Assembly: GCA_045046875.1 (NCBI GenBank)
Contig: JASFYY010000057.1
Location: 1 to 22,761, forward strand
Length of the DNA: 22,761 bases
Source of the DNA: Verrucomicrobiota bacterium
GTDB taxonomy: Bacteria; Verrucomicrobiota; Verrucomicrobiia; Verrucomicrobiales; DEV007
Direction: 5' to 3'
Shown here: piece by piece, positions 21,001 through 22,761 of the stretch
Layout of the letters: each line of letters begins with the position of its first letter
Position numbering within the stretch: position 1 is the first letter of the stretch
Position numbers: made by a program

Positions 21001-22761
21001 AACTCCGCGTCCCGGAGGAGGGCCTCGTCATAACGAGCGGAGAAAACTCTCTGCATAAATCCCCTCACTGCATCTTCCGGTGACTCAAAACCATCCGAAT
21101 GTTTGCGATCATCCGCATATGGAATATCAAAACTTTCGGCATCCGGAAACGTAGTGCGATCCGACATGCTAAAGTAACAGCACGAAGACAATGCTAGACA
21201 CAAGAGCACGATTGCGTTTCTCATGATTTTATAGGCAGAACGTGGAGACTAGCCAGCCGCTACCGGCGGCGGGCGTTGCTTCTGGGCTTGATGTTAAAAT
21301 TACGGTGATCCATAACAGTTAGCGGGTAGCGGCTTGGTCTACGCCGTTTTGTTCGGCACGTGCGGTCTTCGACGTGGCTTCACTATGCGTTAAGGCAACC
21401 ATCGGTTCAATGAATTTACGGATCGATTCGTTCAAACGTTCGTATCCGGCTTCTGAAAGATGAAGAAAATCGCCACTATAGTCAGAGGTGACGTGCCCAT
21501 CGTCGCCAGCCAACACCTCGGCGCTTACAAAGACCGTAACACCGTCTGAAGCCAAGGACTGAAGTTACTTATTTACCTCGTCAATCGCGGGGTCAACTCG
21601 ATCAGACCAGAATGGTCTACGCTCGAAAGGGAGTTCGCCCACAGGAAAGATTGTGGTGACAATAACATGAGCGCCATGATCCCGAGATCGACTGACGATG
21701 TGCCCAATATTCTCCTTACAGCGTTCGATGATCTGCGCTTCGGCGTCTGGAAAGAGCGGAATTGTCTTAAGATCATTGATACCAGCCTGCAATACAACGA
21801 TCCTAGGGCTGAGCGGAGCTAGATGATAACCGAACCTGCCGAGTATTTGCTCAGTGGTTTGCGCGCCAATTCCTAGATTCAATGTTCGTCCTTCAAGCCA
21901 TGTTGGCTCCGGCCACTGCGCCGCTCGAGAATCGCCGTAAAAGACCAGAGCGAGATTTTCCGGCGAGGATGTCACTTCAAGCTGTCTCAATCCCAATGGG
22001 TCGAGCCGCACGGCATTTGCTTCGCTGTAGTAGAGCTTCGCTCGCTGAAATACGATGTAGTTCGCCGCAAATGCGCCGACCAGAAAAAGGACGAGTAGCG
22101 CACCAATAGAGCGTTTGAGGATCGTCCTTCGTGCTACTCTCATTTCTTTGCCGAACGGTTGAGGCTAGCTGATCCTCTGCGGGAGCAAGCGTAGCTTGGT
22201 GGACAAGGTATCAAAGTTAGAATTGGATGACAACTGAAAATGGGCAGAGGATTAGCTACGCCGTTTTGTTGTGCTCCGAATTCAGTTTGACGTAATTGCG
22301 GAATTAACAGCCGAAATGGTATTAGTTGATTTATCAATCGTAATCGACACAATCAATCCCTGTTCAGAATACTGCTTCGTTTGATAATCAAAAATATAAA
22401 TAGACCTTCCATTCACTGACTCGTATTTGTCGGCTTTAGATAAAAAGGTTTGAAACTCATCTGCGCTACTTCCAATCGGAAACAGCTTCGCAAGCCGAAT
22501 TTCGAACCCTGAATCACTATAAGTCTCGCAACATGCGTGAAATTTACTTTCATAATTTTGAGAGCACGAGCATACTAAGATCAGTGACAATAAGAGAAGC
22601 TTATTCATTTATTGGCACAACGTCGAGCACAGGCAACCCGCTACTGGCAGCGAGCTTTCGTGTTCAAGTTGAGGGTTAAAGTTTTCATTTAGATTTGTAG
22701 AGTAGGGACGGCTCCGACTTGGAGCCATCCCCCTCATCAAACCGGACGTGCGGTTCTCCCG

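Follow-up and report, generated by a model that had tools for sequence, protein, structure and literature searches.

An endonuclease-less group II intron, probably of class F, recurs at one position in the loop of putative attC sites in a Verrucomicrobiota genus

A group II intron found in one genus of Verrucomicrobiota occupies the same position in the variable terminal loop of different attC-type sites, on the top strand and in the orientation of the gene cassettes. The stretch of DNA that we analyzed (the window, 22,761 nt, positions 1-22761 of contig C57 of the genome hereafter referred to as G000) ends inside one of its copies. We propose that a mobile class F intron retrohomes by the ordinary code to a multicopy conserved loop motif of one attC sub-family, and we put the probability of this reading at about 0.78. 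As far as sequence comparison can establish them, the position, the strand, the independence of the insertions, the intron class, and the complementarity of EBS1 with covariation are in place; mechanistically, the system is probably conventional.

At the end of the window, the intron terminates in ...CTCTAC and abuts AAATC..., with the R′ core GTT of an attC 75 nt further, at 22621. This fragment scores 24.5 bits on RF00029, low because the sequence is cut off, while a second copy on contig C26 contains the whole of domain V and scores 50.4 bits (cut-off 40). The two are identical at 64 of 65 intron positions, fold with z-scores of -4.3 and -5.4, and carry a bulged A 7 nt from the intron end; domain V has the 5-nt loop GAGAA and, as read in C26, an AGC triad. 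An earlier note on this DNA had claimed that both intron ends directly precede attC right halves, which our analysis bears out. It had also reported the same intron end before an attC right half in all congener copies that it read, and we recovered those four of four, one in G005 and three in G003, on searching 61 relatives. A metagenome scan returned three loci, one holding this intron (L068) and two holding a sister intron (L066 and L067).

All seven near-identical copies (C57, C26, three in G003, and one each in G005 and L068) have their 3′ junction in an attC-type site and are co-oriented with the attC top strand, and every 3′ exon begins with AAAY. The 5′ junctions of this intron likewise lie in attC-type sites in three of three cases, the third, from G003 contig C104, being in a left half. 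A top-strand, cassette-oriented insertion at one central-loop position, as the note proposed, is thus what is seen at 7/7 3′ and 3/3 5′ junctions. The insertion point falls 36-38 nt after the R″ AAC in all four 5′ junctions (three of this intron and one of the L066 sister) and 72-76 nt ahead of the R′ GTT, within the variable terminal region in folds. When scored on an attC profile, six of the seven 3′ exons reach 22-76 bits, compared with 0 of 474 non-attC controls with the junction motif above 10 bits. The seventh, from L068, matches the degenerate terminal site of the window (Table 1).

The intron ends are identical over 112-113 of 113 nt, the seven 3′ exons are only 52-81% alike, and the DNA beyond them has no shared match. 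Because near-identical intron ends stand before different exons and unrelated downstream DNA, the copies are separate recent insertions, and the claim that several attC variants are hit holds. We note that all seven come from one genus (three genomes and one metagenome contig) and are therefore not phylogenetically independent. Five of them lie at contig ends, but those in G005 and L068 are assembled through with both exons. In addition, three different exon endings are seen at the 5′ junction in contigs of other runs; this view, of four runs placed on L068, covers only exons resembling that of L068, with 68 loose ends outside it, and is not a count of other sites.

The L068 copy is intact, spanning 1967 nt and encoding a 439-aa RT-maturase without endonuclease, in a site whose two arms are unpaired. 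The G005 copy had been described as whole and as matching an Rfam D1-D4 model. It does retain both exons, but 600 nt of its ORF are deleted and a 62-nt insert has been gained, and the only D1-D4 match is in G004, at 44.6 bits against a cut-off of 49. The 62-nt insert (L023:11037-11099) is palindromic, and the same element is matched in numerous genomes across the family and the order. On the same G005 locus, the array that bears the intron ends in an attC beyond which lies a transposase fragment, judged IS66-like by eye (L023:9301-9560). Searching the G000 assembly with tblastn returned no IEP sequence, and intron sequence was present in only one RNA run, at a small share (0.06). A further candidate site, on contig C54 of G043, scores 1.8 bits on the attC profile and is attC-like by eye only; neither an empty twin of it nor an intron 5′ end was found in G043.

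Table 1. Intron end, interrupted attC, and cassette array in the window (window coordinates)
Position	Strand	Feature	Evidence or remark
22739..22761	-	Distal half of intron domain V, with AC bulge and 5-nt loop GAGAA	Rest of intron beyond contig end
22697..22738	-	Intron linker and domain VI; bulged branch A at 22703, intron terminus ...AC at 22697	Fold; Rfam model stops at 22697
22615..22696	-	Right-hand part of an attC, forming the 3′ exon: variable-loop remainder (AAATC start), L′ arm, R′ core GTTGTGC (22621-22615)	76 bits, attC profile from G000 sites
22282..22608	-	Following cassette ORF, co-oriented with intron; 108 aa, without a Pfam family	
14182..22274	-	Cassette array: 11 uninterrupted attC, each after a co-oriented ORF	
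14558-14684, 16767-16895, 20446-20575	-	Three array attC with the AGTYR↓AAA target (↓, insertion point)	
13950..14035	-	Degenerate terminal attC-like site of the array, empty in G000	Ortholog in L068 holds the intact intron; junction about 14002/14003

The ORFs of the array encode a GDSL hydrolase, SMI1/KNR4, and unknowns. Downstream of the insertion in L068, the 3′ flank is 95% identical to window positions 13646-14002 over 357 nt. Elsewhere in the window, positions 3723-3830 form an inverted repeat whose arms are 29 nt long and which weakly matches the Acido-Lenti-1 RNA (20.6 bits, below the cut-off), and positions 1-1347 hold an open frame with repeated DxDxDG-type motifs that runs off the contig start.

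An iterated profile identified 56 attC-type repeats in G000, 12 of them in the window. Each is 120-130 nt long, lies downstream of a co-oriented ORF, and combines an R″ AAC and an R′ GTT core with long imperfect inverted arms; the bottom strands fold at -16 to -26 kcal/mol, and the core flanks deviate from RYYYAAC/GTTRRRY. An intI gene on C117 is located 0.8 kb from one attC of this family, a second intI is found at the end of C27, and integron integrases above the TIGR02249 cut-off are present in G000, G003, G005, and G043. We accept the repeats as attC sites, putative as to recombination by IntI.

The C117 integrase (L032:1420-3449) is broken by one TAG and is co-directional with the next cassette ORF and attC, while textbook integrons are divergent. 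The family is spread over many short arrays (C11, C13, C19, C25, C26, C43, C54, C57, C67, and C159), several at contig ends, and the arrays on C19 and C159 run opposite to the usual sedentary-integron orientation. Some empty attC look hybrid, with arms from two sub-families (C25:54407-54529, C43:1639-1765, C133:81762-81889, and window 13950-14035). No enrichment of this type was observed among intron-targetable sites. Intron-intron recombination was considered as the maker of hybrid attC and rejected, as arm-pairing scores were alike for AAA-type (n=19) and other (n=28) sites (p = 0.76; three of 50 empty sites, in which no junction was found, were left out).

We examined how the insertion site might be read. 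The note had cited the motif GT(T/C)(G/A)AAA in 16 of 45 uninterrupted attC; we find it in 18 of 50 near-full empty attC, but its 4578 occurrences genome-wide deprive it of weight as evidence on its own. A consensus fold of five related 5′ regions, in which 42 of 106 pairs have a compensatory change, contains an EBS1 hairpin and a bulge at the EBS2 position. EBS1 pairs with the last 5-7 bases of the 5′ exon. Across the five introns and the last seven exon bases, 32 of 35 cells are paired (91.4%), and four of the seven pairs are compensatory. None of 500 shuffles scored as high and slid registers gave 23-43%; shuffles can be beaten by the kinship of the sequences, so the slid registers weigh more. 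In L068, EBS1 matches its own exon at 5/7 positions and other exons at 6-7/7. Paired with the exon of the same intron, the EBS2 bulge forms 5 bp in L068, 5 bp in the REP sister (described below), and 6 bp in G004, the best or tied-best score in these three of the five introns; in the same register it forms 4 bp in G005 and 3 bp in L066, where another exon is one base better. EBS2-IBS2 pairing is therefore suggestive.

The base that follows the insertion point also appears to matter. Among empty attC with AGTYR at the junction position, the next base is A in 15 and another base in 21, yet all seven insertions have A, suggesting that sequence is read at +1 and arguing against shape alone. On the other hand, AGTYR↓AAAY occurs at 487 sites in G000, only 11 of which are in attC; when the IBS2 core is required as well, 29 sites remain, two of them in attC, and a longer linear motif, chosen after the fact, has 23 sites, 10 in attC. 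With 11 of 487 motif sites in attC, pairing alone is too short to give the specificity, and a further factor has to be at work, be it protein contacts, the shape of the hairpin, or selection; by analogy with other homing introns, contacts of the protein in the 3′ exon would be our preferred factor. The unpaired arms of the L068 site argue against a need for a hairpin, unless that site became a hybrid after insertion.

The intron-encoded proteins (IEPs), of 439 and 456 aa, consist of RVT_1 and GIIM only, with a YADD motif and no En domain. In a tree of 43 proteins they sit in a 21-member clade of their own (100/100). A node with support of 98/95 unites this clade with four labelled class F references and three unlabelled proteins, apart from classes C, D, E, G1, CL, and B, class E being represented by a single usable protein (a second reference was left out because of a broken frame). 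The direct link between the IEP clade and the F references is weak (87/46), and sub-group g2-g5 is not separated. Identity to the four class F references is 37-40%, compared with 30% to the class C protein of an IIC-type intron beside blaIMP-4, which is on a separate branch and whose IIC label is inferred from context. Among the best plasmid matches, those findable in Table_3 of PMC8919778 are labelled F(g2-g5).

The 5-nt domain V loop is given as a feature of classes E and F in passages of PMC3753933. Class F boundaries read GUGYG...AY; the intron begins with G(T/C)ACG (GTACG or GCACG) rather than GTGCG, and the 3′ AC and the bulged A are present. At the position that we read by eye as ε′, GT replaces the GC of the F references, a change that may be compensatory, as it would preserve pairing with the altered 5′ end. 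In class F, α′ is placed at the tip of a DId3 stem-loop; the consensus fold has a long extra stem-loop after the EBS1 hairpin, in which α-α′ was not located. Together, the protein comparisons and the domain V loop support assignment to class F, as an IIB-like, endonuclease-less intron and not one of class C. The earlier proposal of a non-IIC intron is thereby upheld by the tree and the AGC triad.

GC skew in G000 is very strong, at about +/-0.4 at fourfold sites and bimodal across contigs, and is usable for orienting contigs to replication. The intron sense strand is the G-rich strand (the lagging-strand template) in 10 of 13 copies of the lineage, with one copy opposite and two flat. The En-less intron RmInt1 likewise uses the lagging-strand template (passages of PMC8914252), and in sedentary integrons the leading template mostly carries the bottom strand of attC (passages of PMC8946536), which leaves the top strand exposed. 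For the attC copies alone, five of the six that are well flanked are G-rich, no more than the attC background of 41 of 56, so the strand bias is compatible with such a route and adds nothing for these copies. Lagging-template orientation as the cause of top-strand choice was set aside: 10 of 18 attC contigs of at least 9 kb are so oriented, as are 7 of the 9 that have at least two sites.

The wider intron lineage is not attC-specific, as a sister occupies another repeat and decayed relatives occur elsewhere. The second intron family in the congeners, which the note took to be unrelated, turned out to be a sister clade with 74% protein identity, that is, a retargeted relative. On G003 contigs C45 and C46, this 74%-identical sister has changed EBS1 and EBS2 and sits in the repeat GGGGTCA↓GTCAGC, which we take to be a REP-like element of the REP/RAYT type. 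These two copies (L070:1-1300 and L030:4523-4700) lie just 3′ of what looks by eye like an Rhs-like toxin-tip and immunity-like pair. In L066 and L067, also at 74% protein identity, an attC-like left half makes up the 5′ exon, and AAAT opens the 3′ exon. Decayed relatives, about 85% identical, are found outside attC (G003 C98 and C132, G002 C478, G004 C144, and G043 C73), and these off-attC relatives have differing domain VI or EBS sequences.

The intron has a narrow known range. A DNA search of a phylum sample detected the intron in one of 401 genomes (G000 only, with two candidates scored per genome), a 5′-end pattern gave 0 of 401 in a class sample that contained no positive genome, and a protein search of the family gave matches of at least 65% in only three congeners among 134 genomes. 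A domain V pattern was found in 11 of 401 genomes of an order sample, including six more distant genomes whose 3′ exons did not look like attC by eye. Searches of viral contigs returned 0, 0, and one distant match. The two collection scans used a narrow 31-nt pattern. Related IEPs number about 50 protein clusters at 55-92% identity, known from protein alone, without exons. Multi-copy introns with a similar domain V also occur in G601 and G741 (L119-L134), where the 3′ exons are diverse and not attC-like.

On balance, the data show a pattern of homing, as judged from the junctions, to a conserved sequence that lies in a loop; they do not show that the loop is recognized by its structure. In the proposed mechanism, the intron is predicted to retrohome to AGT(C/T)(G/A)↓AAA(C/T), a motif that one attC sub-family carries in its variable terminal loop, probably also using EBS2 and the +1 base and possibly depending on the replication fork. 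Lying in cassette orientation, the intron would be co-transcribed with the array and is predicted to be spliced out of the mRNA. In DNA, the R and L boxes would remain intact but 1.4-2 kb apart, and recombination at the site should drop.

An intron that is a true attC specialist, whose RNP depends not only on EBS pairing but also on a single-stranded, folded top strand of attC, much as IIC-attC introns require a stem-loop, would account for the constant 36-38 nt from R″ across attC families, for the 476 of 487 short motif sites outside attC at which no insertion was observed, and for a junction that, when empty and rejoined sites are folded, lies inside the region closed by the long stem. We nevertheless consider a structural requirement of this kind unlikely: attC with the same stem and IBS1 but no +1 A, 21 of 36, are never hit, the arms of the L068 site are unpaired, a different repeat is targeted by the 74%-identical sister, whose EBS1 and EBS2 are changed, and the longer linear motif, although post hoc, brings the genome to 23 sites with 10 in attC. 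The target preference could also be a product of selection, with the intron inserting at many AGTYR↓A sites and only copies in attC loops, harmless and transcribed from cassette promoters, persisting. Decayed relatives outside attC and hundreds of short motif sites fit this idea. Against it, the copies are near-identical, and hence recent, and 7/7 lie in attC, which amounts to 6751 of 5589768 nt (0.12%) in this genome; many intergenic non-attC sites should be tolerated as well, and the relatives outside attC show about 85% identity and differ in domain VI or EBS. We regard it as very unlikely.

Finally, five of the seven copies are at contig ends and hybrid left and right halves exist (L068), as might be expected if one ancestral insertion had been spread by cassette shuffling or gene conversion, or if the junctions were artefacts of assembly at contig ends. 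Such an origin is almost certainly wrong, given seven attC variants with seven downstream sequences, two copies assembled through with both exons, an empty orthologous site, and contigs of other runs that cross the 5′ junction with three exon ends. Conventional homing to the loop motif thus remains our preferred reading. A bolder reading is a third route into integrons, evolved independently: a few EBS changes would have switched a class F intron from a palindromic repeat to attC, and it would require the folded top strand for insertion and lock the array; this is possible, although we doubt it. If it were true, neighboring cassettes would be welded together in DNA by a loop enlarged about 30-fold, with the transcript kept intact by splicing.

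The significance of the system lies in a class F lineage that would colonize attC by the ordinary homing code, from the other strand, sparing the recombination boxes and riding the cassette transcript. Excerpts of a review describe three target habits for group II introns in bacteria, attC targeting being limited to class C (PMC4424553). Long attC loops lower recombination by up to 4 logs in replicative conditions and not on conjugated single strands, according to passages of PMC8946536; here, the intron enlarges the loop from about 65 nt to 1.5-2 kb in DNA. EBS2-IBS2 is reported as dispensable for splicing of E/F introns in vitro, and a role in retrohoming is posed, in passages of PMC3753933. 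One intact intron, seven targets, empty twins, and a retargeted sister make up a natural test set that bears on the role of EBS2-IBS2 in retrohoming and on whether a cassette becomes frozen by an insertion into the variable loop. The limits on this significance are the narrow known range and the probably conventional mechanism.

The present intron groups with class F, whereas RmInt1 belongs to class D and has a target that is not attC but an insertion sequence. As an En-less intron that homes by EBS-IBS pairing to a multicopy element on the lagging template, RmInt1 is nonetheless the likely working model (passages of PMC8914252). The closest relatives by class are the class F g2-g5 introns, such as Ni.ha.I1 and D.a.I1, which, according to PMC3552965 and PMC3753933, share an RT-X protein of about 440 aa without En, a length of about 2 kb, and a nearly identical domain V with the same 5-nt loop. 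They differ in their GTGCG 5′ end, where the intron described here has G(T/C)ACG and its own 100/100 clade. The class F hosts in Table S2 of PMC3552965 are IS elements, genes, and non-coding DNA, and none in that table is called attC.

The IIC-attC introns (S.ma.I2 and relatives) likewise lack En and occur repeatedly within the attC of arrays, but passages of PMC3001079 and PMC7923331 place them on the bottom strand, opposite to the cassettes, at TTGT/T of R″, with a stem-loop in place of IBS2. They belong to class C, with a CGC triad, an EBS1 of 3-4 bp, and no EBS2, whereas the intron described here, in the central loop of the top strand, has class F affinity, an AGC triad, an EBS1 of 5-7 bp, and a probable EBS2. 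Other introns in arrays are also non-IIC or on the top strand, as described in passages of PMC7923331: UHB.I2 (IIB1/CL1), in cassette orientation as here but just after an attC; H.ha.F1/F2, 5′-truncated class E fragments inside cassettes; and a top-strand IIC intron of Enterobacter cloacae. These are single cases, and the same passages mention no repeated loop position or EBS-IBS covariation. Our literature search, with most subscription papers outside its scope, brought up neither a class F intron in attC nor an intron that targets the loop; what is new here is the loop position together with the intron class. The same pair of targets as that of the intron and its sister is shared by DNA transposons of a different kind: the IS1111-attC elements ISKpn4 and ISPst6 and the REP-targeting ISPa11 are RNA-guided, and passages of PMC11187229 describe the IS1111-attC elements as using a seekRNA and inserting at one end of attC, whereas here an intron enters the loop.
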